A DNA stretch of 64,000 nt from Lepidodermella squamata (taxonomy: Eukaryota > Animalia > Gastrotricha), in NCBI GenBank assembly GCA_047495785.1, contig JBLDXI010000014.1, positions 652,653 through 716,652 on the forward strand, given 5' to 3'. Of this stretch, positions 18,720 through 47,325 are shown piece by piece. Made by a program: the position numbers and the translations under genes. A model generated the notes under the pieces. That model made no database searches, was not told the DNA's origin, and saw only the letters and a program-made list of their open reading frames with translations. How positions within the stretch are numbered: position 1 is the stretch's first letter; the number at the start of each line of letters is the position of its first letter.

Positions 18720-19859
18720 GCGTGGGCGTGAGTGGCGATACGGTGTCTGTTGTTGCTGGTAATTATCGGCCGGGTTGCAACTGGCCTTATTGGCAATAAC
18801 CGTAAAATTCGGACGATGGCTGATGTTACGATGATTGTTCAGTTGTTTCTAGACGTAAAGAAAACAGCAACAACAATAAATAAAAAATAACAAAAATCTG
18901 CCCCTATAGGCATAAATCGCTAGCTAATAACCGATAGATCAGATATCGCCTGTCCGAATGTGAAACGTAATACAGCAGCCCACAACCGGCTATAAAACCG
19001 ACCGGGCAGTTGGTGATTACTAAATATGCGAATCGCTACGTTGCATAATGTTATATCGAAAAACTGGATGATTTTATTATAGTTGGTAGTCGCTTATATC
19101 TGCTGTCGACAAAACTACTACAAACAAGCGCGCTTCTGCATATCATCTCGCTCTTGGGCATTTAGTAGCCGCTTGCGCACACGATCAGCATTTTTACGAT
19201 ATTATGTTATCATACGGTGGTGCCTTAGCGGTGTGGCCTATCACTTATTGGGATATAGGAAACGCATACATATTAACATATTTTTCAAGCGGGCCCTATG
19301 TTTAAATCGCGCTGCGATCAATCGACATGACCGGCGAGCGTGCCGTTTTAGCCGTTTTTGTCTTTTCCCGACAAAAACCAGAATACACAAATAAGAAATG
19401 AAAAACGTTGATAGCGTCAAACAATGAAAGATAAAAATTAACATTACATCGCCACAACATAATACCATGTTGGATAATGCGACAAACACGCACACGAAAT
19501 GCATATATATATATCGGCTTGATTTTTGACGCTGGTATACAATTTCATAATTGCATTATTAGCGCGAGAAAAACCGAACTCCCAACAACAAGCGCGAATT
19601 ATTTGCGTATTATTATTTTATATATACGCAACGAGAATTTTCCGAATACAAGGCGAAGACAATGAGTTGATGCGCGTAGCGAATGAAAATAATAACAACG
19701 TGTTTGAACATCAGTTGTTGGTGTTACTCTATACTTATTGGATTTTTTTTGCGTCCATGTGGCGGGGGTTAATGTAATATTTTTGAGCGCCGAACGAACC
19801 GAGGCGCATTTATATTTGCTGTTACTGAAATAATATTAGTAGTAAGGATGGGAACTTTG

Positions 19860-20024
19860 GATCAGTAATAGCAGTACGGCGATTTTTACTATAGCCGTTT
19901 GGTATAAATATACGCAATTTGCGATCAGTAATGGCAGTACGGCGATTTTTACTATACCCGTTTGGTATAAATATACGCAATTTGGGGATGAGTAATAGCA
20001 GTACGGCGATTTGTACTATAGCCG
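19860..20024 (+). repeat. Subterminal tandem repeat, ~63-64-bp unit x ~2.6 (mirror copy ~31931-32095)
   Basis: Units GATCAGTAATAGCAGTACGGCGATTTTTACTATAGCCG... start at 19860, 19923 and 19987. Confidence 0.9.
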
Positions 20025-20290
20025 CTTCTTGTCAATATACCTTCGTTTTAACCCACTGCTATGATTTCACCTAACTAAAATAAACAAATCTTCGTTTTTT
20101 CACCTGTTATGAGCTAAACTAATCATTTTTACACTGCTTCTTTAGTGCAGCTGCAATAGAGCCCTTTTTCATTCACACAAACACTTTTTATTAGTCTTAA
20201 CGTTTCAAGCAATGAATTTATAGCTGGGATAAGTCTTATCAGTTTTTCTATTCATTTGTTCAGAGATTTGTAGCGGCTTGATTGGAGGGG

Positions 20291-20794
20291 TTAACGTCCA
20301 GATGAACCGAATCCGTTATCGCCACGGGTCGAATTTGCTGCTAGAGCGTTTTTCAATGGCCCCGTTACCGTTACTGCAGATTCTAAGCGACCATATTTTA
20401 AACACACCAACTGGGTAATACGGTCGCCTATTTTAATCTTGTAAGGTGTTTTGCTGTTGTTTGCAAGGCAGACTACGATTTTTCCGGTGTAGTCGGCGTC
20501 TTTAATTCATGAAAAATACAGATATTCATTAGTAATTTTCATTATTATTTGCTTCTTACCTATTACTCCAGCGACCGTATCGATTCCATGGTTGATGCTC
20601 ATTCCTGATCGACTGAATAGTTGTCCATAATATCCTCGTGGTAAACAGATTTTAATATCAGTTTGAATCAGTCCCCTGGTTCCAGGTTGCAGTGTCGTCT
20701 CTTCTGCTGAATAGATGTCCCAACCCACAGAGCCTTTAGTATGCTTTGTCGGTTCTTTAGCTTTGTTACTTGTTAGCTCTACCTTCAGCTTCAT
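20291..20794 (-). CDS. dut: dUTPase (element-borne, left-arm copy), 1 intron
   Basis: Mirror of 31161-31664, with motifs GWDIYS, SRSG, AGVID.DY.G, GDRITQL and RG..GFGSSG. Confidence 0.9.
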
Positions 20795-21228
20795 ATTTTA
20801 TAATTTATATTGTTACTGAGGTTCGATTTTTATGTGAGCGGCTACCTCCTTTCAGGCATATTGTTTTTGTAATTCAATCTTCCTTAAAAATGCATTAGGG
20901 CCTTTAGCTCTGTTGACCCCTCAGTGCTGGCTTTAATGCTTTTCATCAAAGATTCTTGGTATTGTATACATCCTCCTTAATTGCTGTCGGTAATTCAATA
21001 AGAAAACATCATGTCAATAAATCTTATACATCCTCCCTAATTAAACAATGCGATTTTTTACTTATCAAAATAAAAAGCAATTAGGATTTTTTACCCTTTA
21101 CGGTGTAATTACCTTAAACAATTCAAACAAAACATCTCCCTGTTTTTTCCTTTTATGGAAATATCACTCAGACTATTTAAGAGAGATGCTTCAAGAATAC
21201 ACTTAGCATATTTCTTGAAGCAAGCTGG

Positions 21229-21993
21229 ATGCATCCTAAAGTCTACCATTTCGGCATAGTCGGCAACATTGGGGCGTAAGTCTCATATACTCCACCGAAT
21301 AGAATTCTATTTAAAGTCTCTTGTTTTAGCGGGAAATCAACCTTAATCGAGGGTCTCACTAATCTACCTTCACTCAACCGTAAACTTCAGGGATATACCG
21401 CGTGGCCAATTTGCGAGCCTGTTCATCGTTGGGAGTCCTTTACTGATGACGATAAAACTAACATTTTGAAAGATTACTATCAGATGAAAAATGCGTTCAA
21501 CTTTCAAATTGTAGCCACGAGTGATATGTGCGGCCTTTATTCAGCCCCTAACCACAAACCTGAAATCTACGGGGCGCATACTATCGTTCTGCATGATCGA
21601 ACGCCCTTCTGTTCTAAAAACGTCTTTATCCCATGTGCGTATGCATCCAAGCGCATAAATTCTATCGAATATCACGCTCTCATGAATTTGTATGATAATT
21701 TCGAGCCGAATTTTGTAAAAACTGAAGCTATTATTTACTTGCGCTCCTCTCCCCAAATAGCTTGTCAAAGAGCCGTAGCTAGAGCTCGGGGTTCTGAAAT
21801 GCTATTATCACTGGATTATTTACGCCTCGTACATGAGTTTCATGAAAAAATGTGTACTGTTGAGACTACAAACAAATCCCTACCATGTCCCGTGCTTGTT
21901 ATCGACACTGATAATTTGAATGCCTCTGAGGTTCTAAAGCAAGCTTCTCAGTATGTTGCCTCTCTTATCACGCCTGTAATCTCTCAGACTTGA
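21229..21993 (+). CDS. Deoxynucleoside kinase (dNK/TK2-like; left-arm copy), 1 intron
   Basis: Removing intron 21276-21329 gives the P-loop GNIGAGKST. Also EPV..W, N.L..YY, AFNFQ, HDRT, IIYLR..P..C..R...RAR..E and YL..VH..HE. Confidence 0.9.
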
Positions 21994-22003
21994 ATCCTCA
22001 TTG

Positions 22004-22366
22004 ATGGATCCAACAAGACTTGTGCTCTCGAACAGCCAGATTTTAGACGCTGAATCTTTGCAATGTCCAATTTGTTTATCTATCCTACTTAATCCTATTC
22101 AAACGCGCCCCTGTGGCCATTTATTTTGTACTAAATGTGTTCTCGCTATTTTTCAAAATTCAGCTCGAACAGTATGTTGCTGTCCACTTTGCCGCGAATC
22201 ATTAACAGGGAAAGATTTCGTTAAACCCCCTGTAATTTTATCGAACATTATCTCGAATTTGATTTACAAATGCCAATATTCTGATAAAGGCTGTCCCATT
22301 ACTCTAACTTATGACCTCATTTTTGGGCATGAAAAGTTATGCCAATATAAAGAACCCATCCCTTAA
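22004..22366 (+). CDS. C3HC4 RING finger plus TRAF-like zinc finger protein (left-arm copy)
   Basis: CPICLS...PCGHLFC..C...CPLCR, followed by C.Y...GC......L..HE..C.Y. Confidence 0.85.
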   Translation: MDPTRLVLSNSQILDAESLQCPICLSILLNPIQTRPCGHLFCTKCVLAIFQNSARTVCCCPLCRESLTGKDFVKPPVILSNIISNLIYKCQYSDKGCPITLTYDLIFGHEKLCQYKEPIP

Positions 22367-22408
22367 AGTTTTACATTCTTATTTCATTAGATTTAATTTT
22401 CAATAATC

Positions 22409-22928
22409 ATGGCTGAGGCGATAGTAGAATCTGCTAACCAGACAGTCAATCATCACATGTCTAGTAACTTGGTCATTCAACAGCATCCTCAGGATTCTAA
22501 TCTCATCTACATAATGACTGATCGCAAAGATAAGAACGATAAGCCTAAAAAACTCGCCTTTAGACAAGACGAATTTCTTAGCCAGTTCGTTCCTTATTTT
22601 CGACCGCCGAATGATGCTTGGGTTGCTCAGGACACATCTCGTGAGAGTTCACAACACAGGCTTTAAATTTTCGATGCATGAATGCAAAATTGAAGTCTGT
22701 GTCTTTGTGCCATCATTTTCACCGATTCTTATAGATATACGCAGGTTTTATCTGGATGCTAAAGGTATTTACTTCAAATTTACAGTAATAGCAATCTTTT
22801 TATGATTTAACTTTTTAGGAAATAAACAACCCTCAAGACAAGGAGTCTCTCTTGATGCAGCTCAGTTTCAAGACCTTGCAACTGGGGTGTTAACTGTTGC
22901 AGCGATGATTGAAACAGCCAATGAATAA
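22409..22928 (+). pseudogene. PC4/Sub1-like ssDNA-binding protein, left-arm copy frameshifted
   Basis: Mirror of 29025-29546, but a 17-nt block (22632-22648) replaces 19 nt and causes a stop at 22666. Confidence 0.75.
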
Positions 22929-23045
22929 GCTAACACAAAACTTGACTAAAATGACTTACTGAATATTTATTTCAATCTATCCTTGTAATAAAGTTTTACC
23001 TCTTCCCAAATTCGATCAATTTTAAATTTTTAATCTTAGATTGTT

Positions 23046-25738
23046 ATGGATAACTATAGTTTACAATACTCATTTATTCGAAGTAATCGCCTGATTCATT
23101 CTACAAAATTCAAAATGTTTTCTGTGGAGTACTTCATTCAGCCCGTAACATCCGACTTTGCCTCAACCTACATCAACAGATATGGCCAATCTTCTAGTTC
23201 GCTTGGGCCGATGATTCAATTGTCTGGTGGCGCTGATGAACCTCGACTGGATAATATTCGATCATTTGTGCAGAACGTACCAGCCGACCAGGTGGCTAAT
23301 ATTGATTTGGAGACCCGCTTCAATATTCTGGCCAACTTCCTGTTCGATATTGTTGTAAATATCCATCGTGATTTACCTGTGAATTCCTTCTGCCGGCTAA
23401 CACTGTACCACCCCGACTTGAAGATGCCTCTTAGCCTACCCTTCATGAAACGCGATCGGTTGCTGGAAATTTCAATTTTGATCAACTGAGAAAAATATTA
23501 CAGAGTAATGAAGAACTCTCATTTGCTGGTCGGTGGACAATTCGTCTCTGTGTCATTGATAACCCCAATGCAGATCTAGGTCAAATTGTTGGTGGTTCTC
23601 GGGCAGAGCGGGCTATAAACGAAACTTTGGACAAATTTTTTCTTCGCTCCAAATCGATCGTTAGAATCGGAGCGCGCAAGAATGAAACGAACAATCTTTG
23701 CATGGGCAGAGCTCTCATCACTGGAGTGGCTTTGGCTCACATGAAGGCGAATCCTACGGATCCATCTCTTCAAGCAACCTTCAAATCGATACGTAGTACG
23801 CGAACCAATCGTCAATTTCGCGAAGCCACGGCGCTATATCAGAAAGCGGGCTTACCTCTCAACCTTCCAGCCTACAATCTAGATGATCATTACTCAGCCC
23901 TGTGTTCGGCTATCGATCCTGAACATAATACTTACAGATTCGTAGTATACTCGTACGAATCACAGGATGTTATTAGGGAAATCCCAGAATTTGATCATCG
24001 CGTAAGCCTTGGGTTGCTTCCTGTTGTTCTACTGGTTTATCGCAACGACGTCTCTCAGCCCAACAGTCATCATTTTCATGTCATTGCGAATCTCAACTTT
24101 ATGAAGGCCACTCTTAGCAATGCACAACGAATATGCCCCACTTGCTTTCAGACGAAAACGAGTACGGCTGTGCACAGATGCAAGTTGGCATGCTCTTCCT
24201 GCCGTAATTTTTACATGAAAAACCTGAATTTCACTTCTTTTATCATTAATATTATTTTAGGTGTATCAGGGAGCATTTGCCGTGTGATTTCCAACACAGA
24301 CCAACAAAACTACACGCGGTGTCCGCAATGTCGTGCAGGTCTGATGTTTTTAACCTTTTCATTATTATTCAGCTCTTTTTATGTTTTTAGTTTTGTATAG
24401 CGAACGTTGTAAGCAAAACCACAAATGTGCTAAAAAGAATCCATGCTTTAAATGCGGGAGGAAATTTGTACATTTTCTCAAGCATGAGGCTATGTGTCCC
24501 GGGCGGCGCTGTCACATTTGTCAGGAGCCTTTGAAAGCCAGCGACGAAGAAAATGGCACACACTTCTGCTTCATGACTCCCTTGGTATACTCATTTTTTT
24601 CAGTCCAGCTTTTTTCAAAATACTGTGGTTGGTGTATTTTTAGCCCTTGAAACCGGCGAATAAACTGGAACGTTATCGTAACCTAGTTTTTTGGGACACT
24701 GAGACATTTTCGCCATCACTTGCTGATAACAACAATGAGTTCCAAGTATGCCTTATCGTTGCAAAGGTCGTATGCATACCTCACTGCATCGAAGCGAGGA
24801 TTCAGCGATGCCATTCTAGTTGTGGACTTCATATTTTTTATGGAAGTCGTCCTCTGGAGGATTTCGTAAACTGGGTGCTTCTACCTATGAATTACCAGTC
24901 GATTTATTTGGCTCACAACTCAGCCAATTTCGATTCCTTATTATTACTGAAAGAAATTCAAACACGATGTTCTAAAGTGAAGATTCTTCAAAGGCAGGGA
25001 TCTCTACTATGCATTGATTTCAAACAACAAAAAATCAGATTTTTGGATTCATATCTCTTTTTTCAATGCAGATTAAGGTAGGTTACCTAAGAAACACTAA
25101 GAAACTACATTGCTTACAGGTATTTGTTCAACAACAGGGATTTACCAGCAACAATGGGAATCCCAGACAAGAAAACCTTCTTTCCTTACGTCTTATGCAC
25201 TAAAGAAAAGTAAGTACATCATCAACTTCTTGAGCTATTGTGATTGAATTCGCTGTAATCCTTCGAGTTTCAATCTCGAATTCCCACAGCTGCCTAATAT
25301 GATCTACTATGAGCCTGACAAAATGTCTCCTTCTGAAAGAGCAGAATTTCTAACTTTCTACAACGAAAACAAACTGAAACGGTTCAGTGTTCGCCACACG
25401 TTACTGCAATACTGCATACAGGATTGTCTAGTTTTGGAAAAGGCGTCAATCAAATTTCGGGCGCTAATGCTGGAGTTGTGTTCTACTGATGCCTTTAAAG
25501 AATGCATCACACTAGCTTCTCTCACAAGCACATGCTTCCGCAAGCTGTTTCTTACGAAGGATACATTACCTGTCATCCCGACCGCTGGCTACTGTGGCAA
25601 GGATTCACACAGCAGGCTCTCGATAGCTTTTCTTCAATTTCTGATGGAGTCTGACCCTGAAACTTATGGTTCAATGAAACACGCTCAGAACTCACGTCAA
25701 GAAGTTCGAATATCTATACCTGGCCACCGTTATCCTTA
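23046..25738 (+). pseudogene. Protein-primed family B DNA polymerase, left-arm copy; frameshifted and truncated
   Basis: T4 instead of T5 at 23476-23479. Introns at 24204-24260, 24339-24390, 24585-24643, 25078-25137 and 25210-25267. The copy ends at the fold-back point. Confidence 0.85.
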
Positions 25739-28700
25739 CAAATTTGAGCAATCTTTTCCAAATTTTGGTCGCCTGAAGTTGAGTGTGATTCGGCAATCAT
25801 AGCCATTAAACGAAAAGCTTCGACCCGCCCTAAAAAGTAGGCATGATGTTTTAATCCCGCGAAGATTAAATAGGGAAAACCTCCAGTTACCTCCAAAGAA
25901 AAACGAACGGCTCTCCATTACATTAGCTATTGTGAGATTATCATAAATCTCCTGTGCTCTCGGGTGTTGTTTGAAACTAGCTCTAATTTCATGCTCCCAA
26001 AAGCTTTGAAGAATGTAACCATTCGAGCGAAACAACTCTTCACGTTCCAAGGTTTGCTTGTAAACTACGCCGTTTGGTTGTCCAGATAGAAAATTTAGTT
26101 GTGAGGCCTCAAAGCATTGCAAGCAGCCATGGACAGCACAACCATGAACCTCGACAATCAGATCGGGTTCACTCGGAATTTTATCACGACGTGCAACAAA
26201 ACCGTCGACGCGATAAGGATAACGGTGGCCAGGTATAGATATTCGAACTTCTTGACGTGAGTTCTGAGCGTGTTTCATTGAACCATAAGTTTCAGGGTCA
26301 GACTCCATCAGAAATTGAAGAAAAGCTATCGAGAGCCTGCTGTGTGAATCCTTGCCACAGTAGCCAGCGGTCGGGATGACAGGTAATGTATCCTTCGTAA
26401 GAAACAGCTTGCGGAAGCATGTGCTTGTGAGAGAAGCTAGTGTGATGCATTCTTTAAAGGCATCAGTAGAACACAACTCCAGCATTAGCGCCCGAAATTT
26501 GATTGACGCCTTTTCCAAAACTAGACAATCCTGTATGCAGTATTGCAGTAACGTGTGGCGAACACTGAACCGTTTCAGTTTGTTTTCGTTGTAGAAAGTT
26601 AGAAATTCTGCTCTTTCAGAAGGAGACATTTTGTCAGGCTCATAGTAGATCATATTAGGCAGCTGTGGGAATTCGAGATTGAAACTCGAAGGATTACAGC
26701 GAATTCAATCACAATAGCTCAAGAAGTTGATGATGTACTTACTTTTCTTTAGTGCATAAGACGTAAGGAAAGAAGGTTTTCTTGTCTGGGATTCCCATTG
26801 TTGCTGGTAAATCCCTGTTGTTGAACAAATACCTGTAAGCAATGTAGTTTCTTAGTGTTTCTTAGGTAACCTACCTTAATCTGCATTGAAAAAAGAGATA
26901 TGAATCCAAAAATCTGATTTTTTGTTGTTTGAAATCAATGCATAGTAGAGATCCCTGCCTTTGAAGAATCTTCACTTTAGAACATCGTGTTTGAATTTCT
27001 TTCAGTAATAATAAGGAATCGAAATTGGCTGAGTTGTGAGCCAAATAAATCGACTGGTAATTCATAGGTAGAAGCACCCAGTTTACGAAATCCTCCAGAG
27101 GACGACTTCCATAAAAAATATGAAGTCCACAACTAGAATGGCATCGCTGAATCCTCGCTTCGATGCAGTGAGGTATGCATACGACCTTTGCAACGATAAG
27201 GCATACTTGGAACTCATTGTTGTTATCAGCAAGTGATGGCGAAAATGTCTCAGTGTCCCAAAAAACTAGGTTACGATAACGTTCCAGTTTATTCGCCGGT
27301 TTCAAGGGCTAAAAATACACCAACCACAGTATTTTGAAAAAAGCTGGACTGAAAAAAATGAGTATACCAAGGGAGTCATGAAGCAGAAGTGTGTGCCATT
27401 TTCTTCGTCGCTGGCTTTCAAAGGCTCCTGACAAATGTGACAGCGCCGCCCGGGACACATAGCCTCATGCTTGAGAAAATGTACAAATTTCCTCCCGCAT
27501 TTAAAGCATGGATTCTTTTTAGCACATTTGTGGTTTTGCTTACAACGTTCGCTATACAAAACTAAAAACATAAAAAGAGCTGAATAATAATGAAAAGGTT
27601 AAAAACATCAGACCTGCACGACATTGCGGACACCGCGTGTAGTTTTGTTGGTCTGTGTTGGAAATCACACGGCAAATGCTCCCTGATACACCTAAAATAA
27701 TATTAATGATAAAAGAAGTGAAATTCAGGTTTTTCATGTAAAAATTACGGCAGGAAGAGCATGCCAACTTGCATCTGTGCACAGCCGTACTCGTTTTCGT
27801 CTGAAAGCAAGTGGGGCATATTCGTTGTGCATTGCTAAGAGTGGCCTTCATAAAGTTGAGATTCGCAATGACATGAAAATGATGACTGTTGGGCTGAGAG
27901 ACGTCGTTGCGATAAACCAGTAGAACAACAGGAAGCAACCCAAGGCTTACGCGATGATCAAATTCTGGGATTTCCCTAATAACATCCTGTGATTCGTACG
28001 AGTATACTACGAATCTGTAAGTATTATGTTCAGGATCGATAGCCGAACACAGGGCTGAGTAATGATCATCTAGATTGTAGGCTGGAAGGTTGAGAGGTAA
28101 GCCCGCTTTCTGATATAGCGCCGTGGCTTCGCGAAATTGACGATTGGTTCGCGTACTACGTATCGATTTGAAGGTTGCTTGAAGAGATGGATCCGTAGGA
28201 TTCGCCTTCATGTGAGCCAAAGCCACTCCAGTGATGAGAGCTCTGCCCATGCAAAGATTGTTCGTTTCATTCTTGCGCGCTCCGATTCTAACGATCGATT
28301 TGGAGCGAAGAAAAAATTTGTCCAAAGTTTCGTTTATAGCCCGCTCTGCCCGAGAACCACCAACAATTTGACCTAGATCTGCATTGGGGTTATCAATGAC
28401 ACAGAGACGAATTGTCCACCGACCAGCAAATGAGAGTTCTTCATTACTCTGTAATATTTTTCTCAGTTGATCAAAAATTGAAATTTCCAGCAACCGATCG
28501 CGTTTCATGAAGGGTAGGCTAAGAGGCATCTTCAAGTCGGGGTGGTACAGTGTTAGCCGGCAGAAGGAATTCACAGGTAAATCACGATGGATATTTACAA
28601 CAATATCGAACAGGAAGTTGGCCAGAATATTGAAGCGGGTCTCCAAATCAATATTAGCCACCTGGTCGGCTGGTACGTTCTGCACAAATGATCGAATATT

Positions 28701-28907
28701 ATCCAGTCGAGGTTCATCAGCGCCACCAGACAATTGAATCATCGGCCCAAGCGAACTAGAAGATTGGCCATATCTGTTGATGTAGGTTGAGGCAAAGTCG
28801 GATGTTACGGGCTGAATGAAGTACTCCACAGAAAACATTTTGAATTTTGTAGAATGAATCAGGCGATTACTTCGAATAAATGAGTATTGTAAACTATAGT
28901 TATCCAT
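25739..28907 (-). pseudogene. Protein-primed family B DNA polymerase (pPolB), right-arm copy; open after splicing but truncated before motif A
   Basis: N-terminal NNLCMGRALI, Cys/His clusters, ExoI FWDTET, ExoII LAHNSANFD, FLDSY, K.FFPY, ExoIII YCIQDCLVL and TLAS. Then an endonuclease-like insert (RVDGF..EVHGCAVHGC..C..WEHE) and FFGG/RVE across intron 25830-25890. No DxxSLYP or YxDTDS motif. Confidence 0.9.
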
Positions 28908-29024
28908 AACAATCTAAGATTAAAAATTTAAAATTGATCGAATTTGGGAAGAGGTAAAACTTTATTACAAGGATAGATTGAAATAAATATTCAGTAAGTC
29001 ATTTTAGTCAAGTTTTGTGTTAGC

Positions 29025-29546
29025 TTATTCATTGGCTGTTTCAATCATCGCTGCAACAGTTAACACCCCAGTTGCAAGGTCTTGAAACTGAGCTGCATCA
29101 AGAGAGACTCCTTGTCTTGAGGGTTGTTTATTTCCTAAAAAGTTAAATCATAAAAAGATTGCTATTACTGTAAATTTGAAGTAAATACCTTTAGCATCCA
29201 GATAAAACCTGCGTATATCTATAAGAATCGGTGAAAATGATGGCACAAAGACACAGACTTCAATTTTGCATTCATGCATCGAAAATTTAAAGCCTGTGTT
29301 GTGAGATAGCAGGGCAAGTTGAGCCTGAGCAACCCAAGCATCATTCGGCGGTCGAAAATAAGGAACGAACTGGCTAAGAAATTCGTCTTGTCTAAAGGCG
29401 AGTTTTTTAGGCTTATCGTTCTTATCTTTGCGATCAGTCATTATGTAGATGAGATTAGAATCCTGAGGATGCTGTTGAATGACCAAGTTACTAGACATGT
29501 GATGATTGACTGTCTGGTTAGCAGATTCTACTATCGCCTCAGCCAT
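29025..29546 (-). CDS. PC4/Sub1-like ssDNA-binding domain protein (right-arm copy, intact), 1 intron
   Basis: Removing intron 29135-29188 gives LIDIRRFYLDAKGNKQPSRQGVSLDAAQFQDL, matching the PC4 core IDIR.....G...P.RKGISL...Q...L. Confidence 0.8.
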
Positions 29547-29588
29547 GATTATTGAAAATTAAATCTAATGAAATAAGAATGTAAAACT

Positions 29589-29951
29589 TTAAGGGATGGG
29601 TTCTTTATATTGGCATAACTTTTCATGCCCAAAAATGAGGTCATAAGTTAGAGTAATGGGACAGCCTTTATCAGAATATTGGCATTTGTAAATCAAATTC
29701 GAGATAATGTTCGATAAAATTACAGGGGGTTTAACGAAATCTTTCCCTGTTAATGATTCGCGGCAAAGTGGACAGCAACATACTGTTCGAGCTGAATTTT
29801 GAAAAATAGCGAGAACACATTTAGTACAAAATAAATGGCCACAGGGGCGCGTTTGAATAGGATTAAGTAGGATAGATAAACAAATTGGACATTGCAAAGA
29901 TTCAGCGTCTAAAATCTGGCTGTTCGAGAGCACAAGTCTTGTTGGATCCAT
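29589..29951 (-). CDS. C3HC4 RING finger plus TRAF-like zinc finger protein (right-arm copy)
   Basis: Translation identical to the left-arm copy. Confidence 0.85.
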   Translation of the reverse strand: MDPTRLVLSNSQILDAESLQCPICLSILLNPIQTRPCGHLFCTKCVLAIFQNSARTVCCCPLCRESLTGKDFVKPPVILSNIISNLIYKCQYSDKGCPITLTYDLIFGHEKLCQYKEPIP

Positions 29952-29961
29952 CAATGAGGAT

Positions 29962-30726
29962 TCAAGTCTGAGAGATTACAGGCGTGATAAGAGAGGCAAC
30001 ATACTGAGAAGCTTGCTTTAGAACCTCAGAGGCATTCAAATTATCAGTGTCGATAACAAGCACGGGACATGGTAGGGATTTGTTTGTAGTCTCAACAGTA
30101 CACATTTTTTCATGAAACTCATGTACGAGGCGTAAATAATCCAGTGATAATAGCATTTCAGAACCCCGAGCTCTAGCTACGGCTCTTTGACAAGCTATTT
30201 GGGGAGAGGAGCGCAAGTAAATAATAGCTTCAGTTTTTACAAAATTCGGCTCGAAATTATCATACAAATTCATGAGAGCGTGATATTCGATAGAATTTAT
30301 GCGCTTGGATGCATACGCACATGGGATAAAGACGTTTTTAGAACAGAAGGGCGTTCGATCATGCAGAACGATAGTATGCGCCCCGTAGATTTCAGGTTTG
30401 TGGTTAGGGGCTGAATAAAGGCCGCACATATCACTCGTGGCTACAATTTGAAAGTTGAACGCATTTTTCATCTGATAGTAATCTTTCAAAATGTTAGTTT
30501 TATCGTCATCAGTAAAGGACTCCCAACGATGAACAGGCTCGCAAATTGGCCACGCGGTATATCCCTGAAGTTTACGGTTGAGTGAAGGTAGATTAGTGAG
30601 ACCCTCGATTAAGGTTGATTTCCCGCTAAAACAAGAGACTTTAAATAGAATTCTATTCGGTGGAGTATATGAGACTTACGCCCCAATGTTGCCGACTATG
30701 CCGAAATGGTAGACTTTAGGATGCAT
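29962..30726 (-). CDS. Deoxynucleoside kinase (right-arm copy), 1 intron
   Basis: Mirror of 21229-21993. Confidence 0.9.
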
Positions 30727-31160
30727 CCAGCTTGCTTCAAGAAATATGCTAAGTGTATTCTTGAAGCATCTCTCTTAAATAGTCTGAGTGATATTTCCAT
30801 AAAAGGAAAAAACAGGGAGATGTTTTGTTTGAATTGTTTAAGGTAATTACACCGTAAAGGGTAAAAAATCCTAATTGCTTTTTATTTTGATAAGTAAAAA
30901 ATCGCATTGTTTAATTAGGGAGGATGTATAAGATTTATTGACATGATGTTTTCTTATTGAATTACCGACAGCAATTAAGGAGGATGTATACAATACCAAG
31001 AATCTTTGATGAAAAGCATTAAAGCCAGCACTGAGGGGTCAACAGAGCTAAAGGCCCTAATGCATTTTTAAGGAAGATTGAATTACAAAAACAATATGCC
31101 TGAAAGGAGGTAGCCGCTCACATAAAAATCGAACCTCAGTAACAATATAAATTATAAAAT

Positions 31161-31664
31161 ATGAAGCTGAAGGTAGAGCTAACAAGTAACAAAGCTAAAG
31201 AACCGACAAAGCATACTAAAGGCTCTGTGGGTTGGGACATCTATTCAGCAGAAGAGACGACACTGCAACCTGGAACCAGGGGACTGATTCAAACTGATAT
31301 TAAAATCTGTTTACCACGAGGATATTATGGACAACTATTCAGTCGATCAGGAATGAGCATCAACCATGGAATCGATACGGTCGCTGGAGTAATAGGTAAG
31401 AAGCAAATAATAATGAAAATTACTAATGAATATCTGTATTTTTCATGAATTAAAGACGCCGACTACACCGGAAAAATCGTAGTCTGCCTTGCAAACAACA
31501 GCAAAACACCTTACAAGATTAAAATAGGCGACCGTATTACCCAGTTGGTGTGTTTAAAATATGGTCGCTTAGAATCTGCAGTAACGGTAACGGGGCCATT
31601 GAAAAACGCTCTAGCAGCAAATTCGACCCGTGGCGATAACGGATTCGGTTCATCTGGACGTTAA
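31161..31664 (+). CDS. dut: dUTPase (right-arm copy), 1 intron
   Basis: Intron 31396-31455 joins AGVI-D-ADYTGKI. The gene ends STRGDNGFGSSGR-stop, so all five dUTPase motifs are present. Confidence 0.92.
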
Positions 31665-32117
31665 CCCCTCCAATCAAGCCGCTACAAATCTCTGAACAAA
31701 TGAATAGAAAAACTGATAAGACTTATCCCAGCTATAAATTCATTGCTTGAAACGTTAAGACTAATAAAAAGTGTTTGTGTGAATGAAAAAGGGCTCTATT
31801 GCAGCTGCACTAAAGAAGCAGTGTAAAAATGATTAGTTTAGCTCATAACAGGTGAAAAAACGAAGATTTGTTTATTTTAGTTAGGTGAAATCATAGCAGT
31901 GGGTTAAAACGAAGGTATATTGACAAGAAGCGGCTATAGTACAAATCGCCGTACTGCTATTACTCATCCCCAAATTGCGTATATTTATACCAAACGGGTA
32001 TAGTAAAAATCGCCGTACTGCCATTACTGATCGCAAATTGCGTATATTTATACCAAACGGCTATAGTAAAAATCGCCGTACTGCTATTACTGATCCAAAG
32101 TTCCCATCCTTACTACT

Positions 32118-34672
32118 GCAACCGCCAGGTCATTGAATACATCAGGCAGACTGTTGCCCCATGCCAGAAACGTCAAACCAAGCAAACTTTCACTCAATCC
32201 TAAGGCGAGTCCGAAGAACTGAATCAGATTAACAACTTCGTTCGCGAACAAGTAAATCCACATTGCAGTTGTTATGAAACCAAGTACAGCAAATGCCTTG
32301 AGATAAATTCATAATAATAAAAAGTGAAATCGATAGGTATCAAACCATGTGGTATTTAGGCCGTTCGGTATTCTTAGAAGTGAAGAACACTACACCAGCA
32401 AGAAGAAGACCAACGTAGCCGAGGATAAATGTCACAGGGAACACCTCGCCTATAAGCAAATCGAGTTCTGGAACAGAGAAAAATCAACAGGTTTGCTTCA
32501 TTCTATAAGACATTTTTACCGTGTAAAGCGAACATGATGAATACTGGAGCTAGAACAAGATGTGCACAATTCAGGGGCCGGTTCCAGTTTTTCATGCGCT
32601 TCTCATCATCCACCACCGGAGTGCAGAGAAAGACGAGGAAAACAATAGGAGCCTTGATGATTTGCATAGCCTTCGAAAACTTGTTTTGAACCTTCCAATC
32701 TTCGTGCTGGATAGGGTCAAGCCCAGTCAAAATCCAACGCCAAATGGGCATTTCTTCGACAATTTCATTGCCGTCGCTCGACACTGATTCTTTTTCAGTA
32801 GCCGTATTTACAGTTTCATCTTGGGGTTCAGGAGTAACACTGACTTCTTGCAGCTCGTGGCTTTCCTGGGCAAGTGAAGGTTTCGGCGAGGCAGATCGGC
32901 GACTCGAGCGACGGCTCGATTCGCTGGTCTGACGCCGTCGTCTTTGCCGAACTTCGAATTCGGCAGAATCCGCCCCATCGTCTTCATCGGAGGAGGAGGA
33001 AGATTCTAGAACAGACCTGATCCAAGTTGCTTCCCCCGGCTGCTGCTGAACAGATGTGTTGCTAGATTTTCGCTTGATACTCTCACGAAGACGCCCGATC
33101 TGCAGCCTAGCGCCCTGTTCTATGTACATACGGGCAACCCTCGACAACCCAGCTAGTTCTTCGGGATTCTCCAAGATTTGCATGTTCCTTTCAAGTTCTT
33201 GTGCAGTTGGTAGTCCTTGCGAGTAGGTCCGCAAAATTGCAGCATTCCGTGAAGCTGCAGCTGCCCGTTCTTTTAAGTAGGTAACTGTTGTCACGTCTAG
33301 ACTGGTAGCTCGTCTCCCATCAACCCTATTGTCTGCAATGGACGGCCGAGGTAGATCAACCCAGGAAACCTTGGACCGTGGCTCATTTCCTTCCGAGCGT
33401 CTTGTCTCCTCTGTCTTTACTACCGTAGCTGGTTCCTCTGCTGTGAAGCTTTTCTCATCACTTGGCGTAGGCGGCTCGACGACGATTGAAACTTTAGTGT
33501 CTTGAGGTTGAATTTCAGGAGGTGGATGTTCGGTGGAAGCAGGCTTCTTCTTTAATTTCCGCTTATTTGACCAATCAATCAGCCAACCATTGACTTTAGG
33601 GCCGAGGATAACGCTAGCAAGGTAGACTGCGTATAAAACTAGAAAGACCAGAGCCTCAGGAATTTCGAAAATGCTATCCCAAACAACAGCGTAGGCTATA
33701 AATTGAAAGAGTGACAAATCCTACTTAATAGATTTTTTTAAATCATACCGCTGAAAACAGCGAGCATGTAGAATATCAATACGCGCAGCAGGGGCCGTTG
33801 CATCGTTCGAAAGGGTTTAACCATAATGATAAGGCCGGCAATGACGGTGGTTGTGAAAGCTCCTGAGCCGAGTAGGGTGCCATACAATACGGAAATATCG
33901 CCATCACGCAATGAGATCGCGGCTGCGATTGAGGTAAAAATGTCTGCAGCTCCATTGCCGAGAGGCAGCAAAGTTTCGCCCTATTAATATCGGTTCAGAG
34001 GCTGGTACAGTCGATATAACTAGCACTTACGGCGACATTTTCACTGTGATAGGATAATCAGAGATTAAAGATAACTCTGTAATGTAAAATGTATACCTGA
34101 GGTGTAAAGCGTTAGCGATGGCTGATAAATTTGGAATGAATCTAAAATTTGTTGGGATAATTTTTACCACGGCCTTTATCAATTGTTGAACTCACACTCG
34201 ATCCGAGGTGACAGTGATTGCTAAAAGCAGAAAGACAAACCAAATCGCCTATATAGCGCAGAGTAATTAGCGGATTTTATAGAATATCCAAGGGATTTGC
34301 TCACATTTAGGATGTACCCAATTGGCCTCAAAACAGGGCCTTGAAAGTTGCAATAGAGGTCTTCGATATAGTTTATATAGCCGCTCTCAATGCCACAGTT
34401 TGGATTGGTCTACAAGGAATGTCAATTTAATGCAGAACAAGATAAGAATTTAAGTTGAAGAAAACCTGGGCAAAGCAACATTGCTCCGCAGAATCTTCGA
34501 TTTTGTGAATATCTTGACAGCTTCTATCCTGAATAATTCAATCAAGAAGTTATTCAAATCCCTTCTGTTCACTCACGTCTTGAGCAAGAGTTGGTGAAAA
34601 CAAGAACGAAAGCGATAAAATTACTGTAATGGAAATAAAGCTATTTTTGCGCTGTTTACTCTTTAGGCGCAT
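32118..34672 (-). pseudogene. NCLX/CCX-type (SLC8B1-like) cation/Ca2+ exchanger, multi-exon, 3'-truncated by the element
   Basis: Alpha-1 repeat GETLLPLGNGAADIFTSIAA, LLGSGAFTTTVIAG and PVVD....NWNRPLN. Alpha-2 repeat LLGLTFLAWGNSLPDVFNDLAV runs directly into the TIR at 32117. Confidence 0.85.
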
Positions 34673-35790: not shown

Positions 35791-38700
35791 ATGAAACGCA
35801 TTTGTGATCACGTCTTGACTGCTGTCTTAACGGTAGCAAATTTTTACGTAATCGCAACTGTTGCTCAACGGACATGCCAACTGCCGAAAATCGAGAACAG
35901 CGAATACCTGGTTGTCAACCGGCCGGTGGGTCTGGCCGACCCAGTTGGACCAGACGCGTCTTTCGCTGTGGAAGGGTCGACTCTTGAAGTTTCTTGCGCC
36001 GAAGGTTTTGGCATAGAAATCGAGAGACGCCAGTACAAAACTGTTCAAACGTCAACCTGTTTACCTGGTGGAAGATGGGAGCCTGAACTCGTCGACTGCG
36101 AAGAAAAGACTAACGAAGCGCCGCAGCGACCGATCTCATCTCTGGACGGCGGCGGGAAAGGCCCTGCTAACCCAGCCATTGTCATGTGCACTATGCCAAC
36201 CATCCCCCAGGGTGCTCAATTTGTGATCAACGACGGAGTAATCCGAGGGCCTGAATTCAGTGGCAAAAAGGTCTCAATGGAAACTGCAGTGACAATTAAA
36301 TGTCCAACCGGTTACTCAATAGCAGGTGGAAGCTCGACAGGAGTTTGCGTATCCTCGAGGCAATGGAGGCCTTTACTGGGCGAGTGTAAGCCTGGGTCCG
36401 ATGCCTCGAATTCGGCGGCAGTGACTCGACCCACCGGAATGATGTGCACTATCCCGCCTTTGATAAACGGGACTAAGCTGGTGATCAACGATGCGGCGAT
36501 TAGAGGAGCTGAGTTCGGAGGTCGGAGGCTTCAAGTTGAGACTTCGATTACAATTCAATGTCCTGTCGGCTATGACATCACTAACGGAAGCGAATCCGGC
36601 GTATGTATGTCGAATGGGAGCTGGAAACCAAGAGTCGGGCAATGCACCCAAATAATGTCTCTACCTGCAATTTCTGTAGCTCAAACTGACGTCCCAAAGA
36701 ACTGCGGACCCACTCCTGTGATTAACGGCGGAACTTTGGGATCTGGCTCAACGGAAATCGGCTCAGTTCGTCGAATTACCTGCACAGCTGGGGGTCGAGT
36801 TCAATCTGGTGTTGATTTCATAGTTTGCTTGAATAACGGATCATGGACTCAGCCTAGCCCTTGCGTACCGAGTTCCGTAACTACTGGAAGACCTACTACA
36901 CTAGCTCAAGCTGCAGTGAAATGTCCCTTACCACCTATCTTCTTGTTTGAACTGGGAAATTTCGCAGTTACCGAAGCTGAGTATGCATCGGCTGATACAA
37001 ATGTCGGTGCTACTCGAGTTTTGAATTGCAAACCGGGCTATAGAATCGATGGCTCTAATAGGGTAACTTGTCAGCAAAATGGCCAATGGACAATGCCTGG
37101 AATGTGTGTTCCGGGTGATTCAGCGCCTCCTACAACGACTGCGAGAGTAACCCAAGCTAGAACAACACTAGCAGTTACTTCAAAGCCTTCGGCACCATTG
37201 GACAGTGGAATAAAATGCCCTCTGCCACCTTTGATTCTTTTCCAACTCGGAAATTTCGCTGTTACTCAACAGGAGTATGATACCGTCGACAACAGTGTTG
37301 GGGCATCTAAAGAGCTGACATGCAAACCTGGATACCGAATCTCCGGCCCTTCTAAAGTTACTTGTCAACCTAATGGAGAGTGGACCATGCCTGGGTTGTG
37401 TGTGGAAATCCCTGCTACGACCACTCGAAGACCGGCTTCTGATGTCGTAACATGCCCCCTACCAACCAAATACCAGCTCGACATGGCTAACTATGTGATG
37501 AGTGATGAGGATTACGATTCGGCAAACATCACAGTTGGCGCGACGAGAACATTGGTCTGTAAGCCTGGTTACCAACTGTCCGGAAATGCTACCCTGAGAT
37601 GCCAGCCGAATAGGGAGTGGAGTATAGGTGGTGCTTGTGTAGCTGTCACGACCACACAATCTTCAGGTCCTACCAGCTGCCCATTGCCGCCGAAATTTTT
37701 GTTTGACCTGGGCAATTTTGCTGTTACTGATGAGGAGTACGCGAATGCAGATAACAAAATAGGAGCCACGCGTGATCTGGTTTGCAAACCTGGGTACCAA
37801 GTTAACGGACCTTCTCGGGTTACTTGCCAACGAAACGGCGAATGGACTATGCCGGGTATGTGTGTCCCAGCCGCAACGACCAGTGCGCCGAAAGTCACCT
37901 GTCCCCTGCCTTCAAAAGCTCAATTTCAACTGGGGAATTACGCAGTTACAGACTCTGAGTATGCTACGGCTAACACAAGTGTCGGGGCAATGCGGGAACT
38001 CAAATGCCGCCCGGGTTTCCAATTAATCGGCCCAACTCGAACTACCTGTCAACAGAACGGCGAATGGTCTGTACCTGGGGCTTGCCTCCCAGCGCCAACA
38101 ACATTGGGTCAGCCTATAGCTCAAGCCCAAGTTTCGACCAACTTACCTAATGGAACCCAGATTTCAAGTTCAACAGCTACTACTGTTAGTAGAGCTGTAG
38201 TTACATCGACCACTTCCGCCACTGTGATAATCAAATGCCCTCTTCCTCCTATGGCTTTGCTCGACGCGGGTGGTTACCTAATGACTGAGGCTGAATATTC
38301 GTCAGCAAACACTTCAGTTGGCGCCACTCGGGTTATCAATTGTAAGCCTGGTTATCAATTGGTTGGTTCCAGCGTTATGACTTGCCAACAAAACGGAGAG
38401 TGGACTACGTCAGGGCTATGCATGCTGGCGTCAACCTCAACGGTATTTTTTCGAGTTTTTTTCAATTTTGGTTGAGTGGAAATTTTGATGTCTTAGGTTA
38501 GTACAACCTCTACAACATCAGCCGTGAAATTTGCTGCTTGCATGTCTCCTCCAGTGCCTCTCATCACGAGGCTCGGTTTCGAATTATCGCCATCAGACCG
38601 GGGCCGGAAAGATTATGCTGTTGGCGATACAATCGTCTTGACTTGTCTACCAAACTTACCGCAACTAACTGGCCCCAACGTAATTGCTTGCAAGCCTGAC

Positions 38701-38850
38701 GGGCAGTGGACAATCGCCGGAAGATGCATTCGCGGTGAAGCATCCGTAGCAAGAAATTCCTCATCAGCTGCTACAACAATCGCGACAACAATGGTAATAG
38801 TCCTGGCCGTAATTATTGCCTTGTTATCCAACGGAGCTAATTGGCACTAA
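35791..38850 (+). CDS. Sushi/CCP-repeat surface protein (~11 CCP domains, S/T-rich linkers), short isoform with C-terminal hydrophobic anchor
   Basis: Signal peptide and repeated C-P..P...C.PG(Y/F)...G....C..NG.W.....C. A phase-0 intron at 38443-38496 leads to a terminal exon with one CCP and a hydrophobic tail. Confidence 0.8.
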
Positions 38851-38994
38851 AGACACTCCATCCTATATTTATTCGTGTTACGTCACTCTAAATCAAACAT
38901 CCCGTTGATTTGATTTATCTCATTGGATAACGCAAGGCAATAATTTACGTGCGAAATAAAATTGAACCTCGACTATTAATTGTCTTTTTAACAG

Positions 38995-41900
38995 CCTATA
39001 ACTACGAATTTGACTGCTAAGGAAACAAATTCAACGAGCAAGTGTCAACTGCCACCTCCATTCGCGTTTGAAATGTATAATTTTGCTGTGTCAGCCGCTG
39101 ATTTGGCTGCCGTAAATTCGAGCGTTGGGGCTAGCTGGCAGCCTAAATGTAAACCGGGTTTCATCATTTCAGGGCCCTCTAATGTGACCTGTTTACCTAA
39201 CGGCGAATGGACCAAGAGTGGGGAGTGTGTTCGAGCAACCACCCCAGGCTTTGTCGCCTTCACCTTCAACTCGACATCAGCTCCAGTTACGACTACAACA
39301 ACCACTAAACCAGCTGTTCAGTGCATTCTACCTCCGTTTATCTTGTTTGAGCTAGGAAACTTCGATGTTACGGAGGAAGATTACGAAACAGCCAACACCT
39401 CAGTCGGGGCATCAAGAGAGCTGCAGTGCCTTCCAGGGTTCCAAATTGTCGGCCCGTCTGTGGTAAGATGTCAACCGAATGGAGAATGGACGTTGCCCGG
39501 GCTTTGTGTTCCAGCTACAGAAACAACTTCTCGAGTCTCGCAGTCTTCGTCGACATCAAAGGCTGCTACCCCTAGATCGTCCTCCATTTCAACTACTACG
39601 AAGGCACCTGTGCTTTGTCCAGTCCCTCCAAAATCCGTGTTCGAATTTGCTAATTTTCTGATAACGGACGCAGATTACAACAGTTTTAACAACTCTGTAG
39701 GGGCGACTAAGGAGCTGAAATGTAAACCTGGATTTCAAGTGAATGGGCCCCCGAGAGTGGTTTGTCAACAGAATGGGCAGTGGACCATGCCGGGTATGTG
39801 TAGCGCGATATCTCAAACAACGCCATCTGCGGCTACATCTGCGGCTACATCTGCGGCTAGAACCAGTACTTCTTGGACCACAGTACCTCAGCCGAAGATT
39901 TTGAACTGCACTTTACCTCCTAAATTCCTGTTTGACATGGGTAACTTCGCGGTTACTGATGCTGAATATGCATCTGCAAACACGAGCATCGGAGCGATAA
40001 AAACACTGAACTGCAAGCCGGGATTTCAGATAATGGGACCATCTAGCGTAACATGCCAAGCGAATGGTGAGTGGACGATGCCCGGAATGTGCGTGCAGGG
40101 TTCGGAGACATCTCCTAGAGTCACACAGCTGTCTTCCACTTCAACCATCAAACTTGCAGTTACAACAGCTGGATTAACCTCGACTGTGACCACTATAAAG
40201 CCGCTCGTTCTGTGTCCAGTTCCTCCGAAATCAATGTTCGACTTTGCTAATTTTGAAATGTCAGACGCAGAGTATAAAACTTTAAATAACTCTGTTGGAG
40301 CGACCAAAGAATTGAAATGCCGACAAGGATTTCAAGCCAATGGTCCTTCGAGAGTCGTGTGCCAACCGAATGGTCAGTGGACCATGCCAGGAATGTGTAC
40401 TGCAGTCCCGCCTACAACGATAGCTGCAGTAACAACCGCAATACCTAGAACCAGCACTGCAATACCAAAGATAATGAATTGCACGCTTCCTCCGAAATTC
40501 CTATTTGACCTGGGTAATTTTGCGGTAACTGACGCTGAGTATGTATCCGCAAACACTAGTATCGGAGCAACAAAATATCTGGCATGTAAACCGGGTTTCC
40601 AGATTATGGGTTCATCTGCGGTTACCTGCCAACCGAATGGTGAATGGACTATGCCTGGAATGTGTGTGGCGGCTCCTGAAGCTACAACATCTCGAGCCAC
40701 CGCATCAGCGTCAAAAATCACAAGCTGTCCATTGCCCCCGAAGTTCATGTTTGATCTCGGAAATTTCGCTGTGACTGATGCTGAATATGCCTCTTCGAAC
40801 ACCAGCATAGGGGCAACGAAAGTTCTCAGTTGTAAGCCCGGTTTCAAACTGATGGGGCAAGCTCAGGTAACGGTAACGTGCCAGCCAAATGGAGAATGGA
40901 CTATGCCAGGAATGTGTGTGGCCGCTGCTGAAGCTACAACACCTCGTGCCACCACACTACCACCAAGAATTACAAGCTGTCCGCTGCCTCCGAAATTCGT
41001 GTTTGATCTTGGAAATTTCGCTGTGACTGATGCCGAATATGCCGCTGCAAACACGAGCATTGGGGCGACTATAATGCTCACTTGTAAGCCCGGCTTTAGG
41101 CTGATGGGGCAGGCTCAGGTCACAGTAAAATGCCAACCAAATGGAGAATGGACTATGCCGCCTGGGTTTTGTGAACAATCTGATACAACCCAATCAGTCT
41201 CAGCTACAACGAAGGCCCCGGTTTTGTGCCGAGAGGTTCCTCGAGCCACGTTGGACGCATCCGGAGCTTCTTTGAGCCCCGAATCGTTGGCTAGTACAAA
41301 TTTTAGCGTCGGCGCAACGCGCATGCTGGTTTGCAGGACTGGATTTCAGATTTTAGGAGCCGCTAACTTGACTTGCCTCGCAACAGGCGAATGGTCTTCG
41401 CCCGGTATCTGCCGGCCGCTTGCTAGAACGATTCCTGCTACGACCACTTCCACAACTACTACTACTACAACTCAGAGAATTGCTATTGTGCCGTCTAATG
41501 ATTATAACATGATGCTGCATAGAGCGGCTGCTAGCGGGAATTCTAAGGAAGTCACGCGAATCTTAGGCCTTCGTTACAGCGGGGTTGCCTTCGACGTGGA
41601 TTGGCGAGACCCTATTCCCTTTAGTTCATGTCGAAACAACCGGACGATGACATTGGCTTCAGCACTTCATAAGGCAACAGCTTGTAATGCTAACATCGAC
41701 ATTGTCCGTCAGCTGGTTGAAGCTGGGGCGGATCGAAATTTCCAAGAAGCAACAAACGGCGATTCAGCACTGATGATGGCTGCGGAGAACGGGAATGTAC
41801 CTTCCTTACGATTGCTGCTGGAAAGTGGCGCAGAAATGGAGATGAAAAACATTGACGGCGAAACTGCGCTGATCTTCGCGGCTCGAAGTGGCAAATTCGA

Positions 41901-45423: not shown

Positions 45424-45508
45424 TTAATAAAATGAGAATTCCGCGACTCCGTTTGGTCAACACAATTTTTATTAAATTTCGAAACGCTCGTTTTATTAGC
45501 TTCGAAAG

Positions 45509-47249: not shown

Positions 47250-47325
47250 CTAAACATAACCTTAACCTTAACCCTGAGCACGAACCCTGAAACCTAACAC
47301 TAACCCCTAACCCCAATTCCTAATC
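47250..47325. repeat. Degenerate (TAACCC/TAACCT)n telomere-like tract
   Basis: CTAAACATAACCTTAACCTTAACCCTGAGC...CCTAACACTAACCCCTAACCCC. Confidence 0.5.

Follow-up and report, generated by a model that had tools for sequence, protein, structure and literature searches.

Adintoviruses carry a pPolB with an OTU-like N-terminal part, predicted also for the element described below, and, like it, accessory genes upstream of PolB (Starrett 2021, PMC8502044; Buck 2024, PMC11071296). Among the entries listed in supplementary file 2 of Buck 2024 (PMC11071296), PC4 labels occur at least 35 times, all adintoviral, in at least 30 records, and dUTPase labels occur in at least 14 adintovirus records. PolB, dUTPase and a P-loop kinase-like protein stand in a row in record BK010999, and the kinase of Meld29240 is labelled Tkoid. 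Among these listed entries, none has a RING label and no record has both PC4 and dUTPase labels. Bidnavirus-type segments with Tkoid/Utoid also represent pPolB viruses with thymidine-kinase-like or dUTPase-like genes, but they belong to parvovirus-like viruses with segmented genomes and are not Mavericks that integrate (PMC11071296). Intact vertebrate Mavericks have been described as intronless, with 6-bp duplications (PMC8097293).

The window analysed here is a 64,000-nt stretch of the Lepidodermella squamata contig JBLDXI010000014.1 (positions 652,653 to 716,652). Genes encoding a dUTPase, a deoxynucleoside kinase (dNK), a RING protein, a PC4-like protein and pPolB were predicted on each arm of a palindrome (Table 1). 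It is quite probable that these genes, which are transcribed and contain introns, make up the left end of a multi-copy Polinton that is young and likely belongs to the adintovirus type; there they likely serve the element's own DNA copying. A sequence-only reading had described five tightly packed genes with the dUTPase divergent from the other four, which is borne out by the layout and the spacing: 434 nt lie between the ATGs of dUTPase and dNK, and the gaps are 10 nt (dNK-RING), 42 nt (RING-PC4) and 117 nt (PC4-PolB). It had also called the cargo intact and mostly two-copy. The dUTPase, dNK and RING genes are identical between the arms, but the left-arm PC4 and PolB genes are broken; these two are open only on the right arm (25733-29546), and the left-arm PolB stops after 147 codons. 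Both arms carry PolB without its polymerase domain. A poly(A) loose end was identified at 31929, within the subterminal repeats on the right-arm dUTPase side. Exact-match lookup of 10 window ORFs in a sequence collection returned none of the 10. Phytochelatin synthase matches are mostly bacterial or unlabelled (52-64%).

Table 1. Coordinates of the palindrome, its genes and the interrupted host gene in the window.
Feature	Position	Strand	Remarks
Palindrome	19838..32117	.	two Polinton left-end arms (5901 + 5904 nt) around 475-nt unique middle; ~12.3 kb
Three 63-bp subterminal repeats	19853..20042	.	mirror copy at 31907-32096
dUTPase, left arm	20291..20794	-	147 aa, intron 20500-20559, open
dNK, left arm	21229..21993	+	236 aa, intron 21276-21329 within P-loop, open
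C3HC4 RING + Sina/TRAF-type zinc finger, left arm	22004..22366	+	120 aa, intronless, without substrate-binding domain
PC4-like gene, left arm	22409..22928	+	mismatch to right arm at 22632-22648; stop after 85 codons
pPolB, left arm	23046..25738	+	frame broken near 23476 (stop 23487-23489); truncated at fold
Unique middle	25739..26213	-	prolongs right-arm pPolB, one more intron (25830-25890); 6-nt left-arm overlap 25733-25738
pPolB, right arm	25733..28907	-	942 open codons, 7 exons; cut upstream of polymerase domain
Right-arm pPolB introns (six)	27692-27748, 27562-27613, 27309-27367, 26815-26874, 26685-26742, 25830-25890	-	
OTU-like domain of right-arm pPolB	near 27840-28322	-	predicted
PC4-like gene, right arm	29025..29546	-	155 aa, intron 29135-29188, open
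RING gene, right arm	29589..29951	-	second copy
dNK, right arm	29962..30726	-	intron 30626-30679
dUTPase, right arm	31161..31664	+	intron 31396-31455
Host Na/Ca-exchanger gene	32118..33980	-	cut by right end at Pfam position 57/151 of second repeat

Profile searches placed dUTPase, dNK, RING and PolB above the Pfam cut-offs, in agreement with the domains first proposed, but left PC4 below it. The dUTPase (PF00692; E 5.6e-26, 91 bits against a cut-off of 22) is of the trimeric type and shows five conserved motifs, in the usual numbering, including the C-terminal P-loop-like one. Its best PDB match is entry 2okb (vaccinia), with an alignment spanning motif 1 to the C-terminal motif; cellular dUTPases trail by about 3-8 bits. 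The dNK (PF01712; E 1e-21, 78 bits against a cut-off of 27) keeps a P-loop, which is made contiguous by a spliced intron, the catalytic Glu, Arg105 and the lid arginines. Of 152 aligned rows, 150-152 match at columns E52, W57, R105, R167, R169 and E172. Since dCK/dGK typically have an Arg/Asp pair that is absent here, thymidine acceptance is predicted. None of 1.84 billion representatives matched the dNK below 1e-30, and a word-index search gave one match among 251 candidates. Over trimmed columns the dNK shares at most 34% identity with other rows, compared with a median best-neighbour identity of 46% among those rows. The dNK tree places it together with five environmental proteins (FastTree 0.885), all more than 2.3 substitutions per site away, and one of its top-ten clusters is labelled viral metagenome.

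The RING gene encodes a putative E3 ligase module, with a C3HC4 RING (E 3.8e-7, 30 bits against a cut-off of 21) and SIAH1 as best PDB match (E 4.6e-10). The PC4-like gene encodes a putative DNA-binding protein. Its PF02229 match is sub-threshold (E 0.005, 16.7 bits against a cut-off of 25), and a motif resembles, by eye, adintovirus PC4 entries; no PDB sequence match was found for it. The pPolB matches DNA_pol_B_2 (PF03175; E 3.4e-7, 30 bits against a cut-off of 25.8) and is 30% identical to the full-length relative P0002 over residues 509-748. In the window it ends at about residue 748 of this 1190-aa relative, before the polymerase domain, and it is continued in contigs of runs X1 and X2. 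The N-terminal domain was modelled with a pLDDT of 79, and Foldseek gave OTUD5 as best match (E 0.08, prob 0.72), with 7 of the 15 top rows named OTU. The putative OTU residues are conserved in 10 (Cys) and 7 (His) of 12 aligned rows, the other rows being partial. The entire N-terminus modelled poorly (pLDDT 49), with an adintovirus polymerase as best BFVD match (E 0.004). Between the exonuclease and polymerase parts lies an insert that resembles a VSR by eye and can be aligned with P0002; Pfam gave it no support. Viral-contig scans with the PolB query yielded no confirmed locus, and an atlas search with exon 1 returned unlabelled clusters only, under recognition level.

Nine GT-AG introns, missed in the sequence-only reading, were identified in the element. 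All nine are skipped in the RNA-like run X2, which is not recorded as RNA and was taken as such by guess together with its splice joints and poly(A); two of the nine were seen spliced in run X3 and none in the DNA-like run X1. The right-arm frames stay open only with the nine introns removed. They lie within 6.4 kb and measure 52-61 nt; two introns in the flanks have lengths of 49 and 52 nt. One 4731-nt X2 contig spans PolB and continues 2098 nt beyond position 25890. The introns thus provide evidence at the RNA level that splicing can occur in the genes of Polintons, also in PolB. Because the element depends on the host spliceosome, its expression is expected to be nuclear. ORF-based surveys would overlook spliced Polinton lineages and the cargo of such lineages. 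An introner origin of the introns was considered and rejected, the best pairwise score (36 pairs) being matched in 2 of 100 shuffles.

The parent element proposed earlier, here taken as Polinton or adintovirus-type, is upheld by X1 and X2 contigs, in which it extends past the fold point; X2 indicates that it is transcribed. The class was assigned here from left-end genes and termini (AGTAGT//ACTACT, Maverick-type), whereas Polinton criteria also include integrase, ATPase, adenain protease, capsids and a size of 13-25 kb, and adintovirus criteria also include a BLASTP-recognisable hexon and a chromodomain integrase, genes that lie outside the window. No integrase gene was found within the palindrome, the parent's right part lying outside the window. 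Loci with related pPolB carry rve-chromo integrase, A32-like ATPase and adenain-like genes nearby. X1 contig depth is 1637-2186 on the element and 165-205 on the right flank, contig depth not being equal to copy number; it also shows a gradient along the arm. The seven long right-arm contigs of X1 contain no alternative letters, indicating near-identical family copies. The element terminus is joined to several different flanks, and empty-site contigs are also present.

The parent's protein-primed PolB would start at the ends of the linear genome and copy it with strand displacement, and the displaced strand may be coated by the PC4-like protein. The dNK would salvage deoxynucleosides, with thymidine predicted among them, and the dUTPase would hold dUTP low; together they could permit DNA synthesis in cells outside S phase. 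Ubiquitin may be added by the RING-zinc-finger protein and removed by the OTU-like domain of PolB. Since it is transcribed, has many near-identical copies and encodes salvage enzymes, the family is well suited to asking whether virus-like replication of Polintons takes place outside S phase. A more far-reaching picture seems rather doubtful: that of an actively spreading intron-rich Polinton lineage with a full nucleotide-supply and ubiquitin-editing early region, made up of dUTPase, a deeply diverged dNK, RING ligase, PC4 SSB and OTU-PolB, which would replicate as large DNA viruses do in cells that are not dividing and would also shed fold-back satellites doubling that region.

The dUTPase, kinase and RING genes had been regarded as typical of larger DNA viruses. 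Adintovirus records, however, already include annotations of PC4, dUTPase and a kinase, so that such a set is nothing alien to Polintons and the cargo stands out less than first claimed. It is unlikely that the salvage genes were acquired together from a large DNA virus (pox-, irido- or nudivirus-like) parasitised by or recombined with the element. The 2okb match and the dNK's environmental and viral-metagenome neighbours would fit such a transfer, but cellular dUTPases score almost as high, the dNK neighbours are distant and unlabelled, and spliceosomal introns suggest long nuclear residence and not a cytoplasmic virus factory. Recent neutral capture of host genes, riding along without function, is very improbable. 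The cargo introns are of host size, and animal proteins are among the best matches of RING and dNK; against this, the catalytic residues have been preserved, introns of the same kind occur in PolB, a gene not of host origin, and PC4 and dUTPase recur across adintoviruses. No relative of the dNK in the databases searched exceeds 40% identity, so that, as far as these show, it was not captured recently from a host, and it appears too diverged to derive recently from any animal gene in the searched library. Spliced polyadenylated transcripts in two runs could also reflect a module co-opted by the host and kept for host benefit instead of element replication, to which we give hardly any weight, because high depth, near-identical copies, several flanks and empty sites indicate recent mobility and not a fixed locus. 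In none of 39 related pPolB loci, many of them short and 20 from one sample, was dUTPase, dNK or RING detected, either by local tblastn with dUTPase exons, dNK and RING as queries or by a dNK profile. Pfam searches of 130 of their 319 ORFs (≥95 aa), which omitted PolB overlaps and small loci and could miss short PC4 genes, found no PC4, dUTPase, dNK or RING. These loci therefore lend no support to a conserved cassette or to selection acting on it.

The mirror arms, read before as a defective two-copy element, do stand in the assembly, but we lean towards an assembly error, in which two different copies of the family were misjoined as a fold-back, over a real element. Both palindrome ends are the same left end of the parent. 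No target-site duplication of 4-9 bp was found at them (the Polinton/Maverick criterion is 5-8 bp), which lowers the case for an intact insertion of this copy and does not affect the class of the parent. The flanks derive from two host sites; the remainder of the cut exchanger gene is neither at the left flank nor elsewhere in the window, and empty-site contigs at both ends continue into DNA unlike the opposite flank. Run X1 shows the parent joint and right-arm form only, with the fold joint and left-arm breaks unseen. Depth in its joint bin is 1422, exactly the value expected if only the parent contig contributes (1422.0), even though X1 retains a 1-nt variant present in single copy, at depth 73. 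Contigs show presence and not absence, and X1 may be another strain (three left-flank differences from the window), so the absent fold joint is no proof of an artefact. A real palindrome, either a fold-back (snap-back) derivative or a chromosomal rearrangement, is conceivable but less expected. It could have formed by a template switch at the 6-nt overlap with helper mobilisation, or by deletion between two facing copies, and the overlap at the fold, two perfect ends and a private 17-nt patch and one private frame break in the left arm would suit it. Besides the missing duplication, the two flank sites, the lost host-gene remainder and the joint-bin depth, amplification, reported to generate such palindromes (PMC6218980, PMC13265396), weighs against it. 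Sequence comparison ruled out a simple inversion as the source of the patch. If the palindrome were real, the salvage genes would be kept at two doses. Palindromic 'defective Polintons' in small-animal assemblies need read-level checks.

Compared with known systems, the dNK and dUTPase share fold families and catalytic motifs with Drosophila-type dNK/TK2 and trimeric dUTPase, and kinship with SIAH/TRAF RING-ZnF and PC4 proteins is predicted for the other two; identity is about 30% for the dNK, the RING protein has no substrate-binding domain and the PC4 match is sub-threshold. The VSR-bearing pPolB2 known from Polintons of marine nematodes and molluscs (Jeong 2023, PMC10748475) has, by eye, a similar insert between exonuclease and polymerase; the supplement of that study contains no dUTPase, kinase, PC4 or RING terms. 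Whether the cassette is already common in Mavericks was checked: single genes are known, and in one record a dUTPase with a kinase, but the combination of dNK-family kinase, dUTPase, RING and PC4, all four cargo genes, was found in none of the adintovirus records listed. Vertebrate Mavericks (Barreat and Katzourakis 2021, PMC8097293) have the same (AGT)2//(ACT)2 ends and accessory regions flanking the core, while the element here has nine introns in 6.4 kb and this copy is without a duplication. It also differs from adintoviruses in its PolB gene, whose first three quarters from the 5' end contain six spliced introns.

Four of the five genes that the sequence-only reading had assigned to this element were recovered above the Pfam cut-offs, namely dUTPase (E = 5.6e-26), the deoxynucleoside kinase dNK (E = 1e-21), a C3HC4 RING protein (E = 3.8e-7) and PolB, through its DNA_pol_B_2 domain (E = 3.4e-7). 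The PC4 domain of the fifth lies below the cut-off (E = 0.005; 16.7 bits against 25) and, because the protein has no PDB match in sequence comparison, PC4 is only its likely name. The dUTPase aligns end to end with solved enzymes (best E = 5e-23). The closest solved structure to the kinase is a Drosophila-type dNK (E = 3e-13), and the top PDB match of the RING protein is SIAH1, in an alignment that takes in the adjoining zinc finger. The N-terminal domain of PolB, predicted with a pLDDT of 79, has OTUD5 as its best Foldseek match (E = 0.08), with OTU-named rows making up 7 of the top 15. This putative OTU-like domain agrees with how the accessible part of PMC11071296 defines adintoviruses.

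Features of the window, with positions in the window
Position	Feature	Remarks
19838-32117	Near-perfect palindrome	Arms of 5901 and 5904 nt; unique middle of 475 nt
19838-26213	Steps in X1 contig depth	2186 near terminus, down to 1637 at fold; possible causes are truncated copies and end-biased replication
19870; 19914	X1 contigs diverge	Terminus matched for first 33 or 77 nt only; probably parent's other end or sister families
20291-25738	Five-gene set	Within left arm
20965-21040	18-nt direct repeat	Two copies ~58 nt apart, in 434-nt gap between divergent dUTPase and dNK; possible bidirectional promoter element
29461-30535	Single X2 contig, 1075 nt	dNK 3' part, RING, start of PC4-like gene
31929	Poly(A) end	
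32174-33200	X1 flank depth	Two haplotypes, ~68 vs 141; as expected of a triploid or duplicated locus
35791-42285	Two long ORFs	Sushi repeats
43005-43712; 49934-50563	Two phytochelatin-synthase-like genes	~75% alike
44182-60092	Cluster of Cys-loop ligand-gated channel genes	Each one long ORF
56567-56621; 60689-60743	Repeated 55-nt channel-gene piece	100% identity, 4.1 kb apart

Direct evidence of splicing in Polinton genes is the strongest new point of this finding. Twelve joints were listed on 25700-33200, comprising 11 GT-AG skips and one low-depth strand switch. Nine skips lie within the element (six in PolB and one each in the PC4-like gene, dNK and dUTPase) and two in a host gene. The element introns are 52-61 nt long and unrelated to each other; all nine were seen in the RNA-like run X2, two in the further run X3 and none in the DNA-like run X1. 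X2 is taken as RNA on a guess plus its GT-AG joints and poly(A). When spliced, the right arm encodes dUTPase (147 aa), dNK (236 aa), RING (120 aa) and PC4-like (155 aa) proteins and 942 open codons of PolB, while the unspliced dUTPase, PC4-like and PolB frames stop early, at 95, 132 and 451. The genes had been read as intact, mostly in two copies; this holds for dUTPase, dNK and RING, which are identical in both arms. The left arm has two further frame breaks, one in its PC4-like gene and one in its PolB. An X2 contig of 4731 nt reaches 2098 nt past 25890 and, together with the poly(A) end, indicates that a longer parent gene is transcribed; transcription thus continues past the fold point. 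The 10-nt dNK-RING gap and the 1075-nt contig hint at shared or overlapping dNK, RING and PC4-like transcripts.

The palindrome starts with AGTAGT and ends with ACTACT, the Maverick end motif as given in the accessible part of PMC8097293, and has three subterminal repeats of 63 bp. The PolB of this copy breaks off before the polymerase domain, at roughly residue 748 of a 1190-aa relative. The palindrome ends are not those of a clean insertion. No target-site duplication of 4-9 bp was found there, and the right end interrupts an exon of a Na/Ca-exchanger gene, at position 57 of the 151 in the profile. From this cut point, X1 and X2 contigs continue into DNA unlike the left flank of the window, and a short motif of that DNA is absent from the window; contigs of the left flank likewise continue into other DNA. 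The only joint present in X1 is that of the parent, and the only arm form is the right one; the parent contig by itself accounts for the depth of the joint bin. A chimera formed by fold-back, through which two family copies became joined in assembly, would explain the missing duplication, the unmatched flanks, the left-arm breaks and the parent-only joint, and we consider it the probable origin; palindromes of this kind are familiar artefacts of amplification (PMC6218980, PMC13265396, accessible parts). A real rearrangement or satellite is a less likely but reasonable alternative: X1 may come from another strain and contigs lose rare forms, but the absent duplication, the flanks carrying on into other DNA and the parent-only joint all speak against it.

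The Polinton family is multi-copy and young. In X1, the long element contigs have a depth of 1637-2186, whereas the flanks reach 165-205 (right) and 73 (left), a contrast taken only in this sense, as contig depth does not equal copy number. The element contigs carry no variants in the right arm, and at a 1% threshold the internal differences are left-arm features and one 1-nt variant only; the copies are therefore too alike for dN/dS. The surrounding host animal genes encode Cys-loop channels, Sushi repeats and a cystatin. Bacterial, fungal or unnamed proteins (52-64%) make up most of the best matches of the phytochelatin-synthase-like genes; none of the 120 matches listed comes from a named animal.

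The kinase has 1510 matches among 1.84 billion representatives, none below 1e-30, with listed identities of 24-40%. In a FastTree phylogeny of 152 rows (the query, the protein P0001 and the 150 best, two polymerases excluded) and 195 columns, its branch is long and falls in a six-member group (support 0.885) together with five environmental proteins without taxon, the nearest lying 2.4 substitutions per site away. Recent capture from a host is therefore unlikely for the kinase as far as the libraries reach. The kinase has Met and Ser at columns with Arg in 109 and Asp in 103 of the 152 rows. Biochemistry of dNKs links these columns to substrate choice, and on this basis the kinase is predicted to accept thymidine. 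Going by its scores, the dUTPase could have come from a viral or a cellular donor, and a large-DNA-virus origin of the cargo, judged from sequence, is unproven. In the element, a PC4-type SSB may aid strand-displacement replication, nucleotide salvage could support copying outside S phase, and RING and OTU might together edit ubiquitin.

The five-gene set is not described in the titles and abstract openings of the Polinton, Maverick and adintovirus literature searched, nor mentioned in the accessible parts of PMC10748475, PMC11131425, PMC11296320, PMC8961515, 10.64898/2026.10.13.758929 and PMC11957031 (introners in dinoflagellate elements). Cassette terms have no match in the supplements of PMC8097293 and PMC10748475. 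Among 39 metagenome loci with related PolB, none carries dUTPase, dNK or RING; the cassette is therefore patchy, not core. Three of these loci (L001:2501-12301, L032 and L037) are compact Polinton-like contigs; beside a related PolB they carry rve-chromo integrase and ATPase genes, and salvage genes are absent from the DNA examined.

Adintoviruses are among the closest known systems. In the accessible part of PMC11071296 supplementary file 2, PC4 labels occur at at least 35 places, all within at least 30 adintovirus records, and dUTPase labels occur in at least 14 adintovirus records among the places covered, which were 40 of 43 for Utoid, 10 of 11 for dUTP and 6 of 6 for deoxyuridine. The BK010999 record lists a P-loop kinase-like protein alongside PolB and dUTPase, and adintovirus maps in the accessible PMC8502044 supplement bear dUTPase and SSDBP labels. 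In BK010999 and Adinto21560, dUTPase ORFs stop or start near the third motif, judged by eye, as an unrecognised intron would cause. Three of the four cargo types thus have precedent; the full set including RING was not found in the accessible parts of these two supplements. Overall, this is a genuine but incremental variant within the adintovirus-type Polintons, set apart by the full combination that includes RING.
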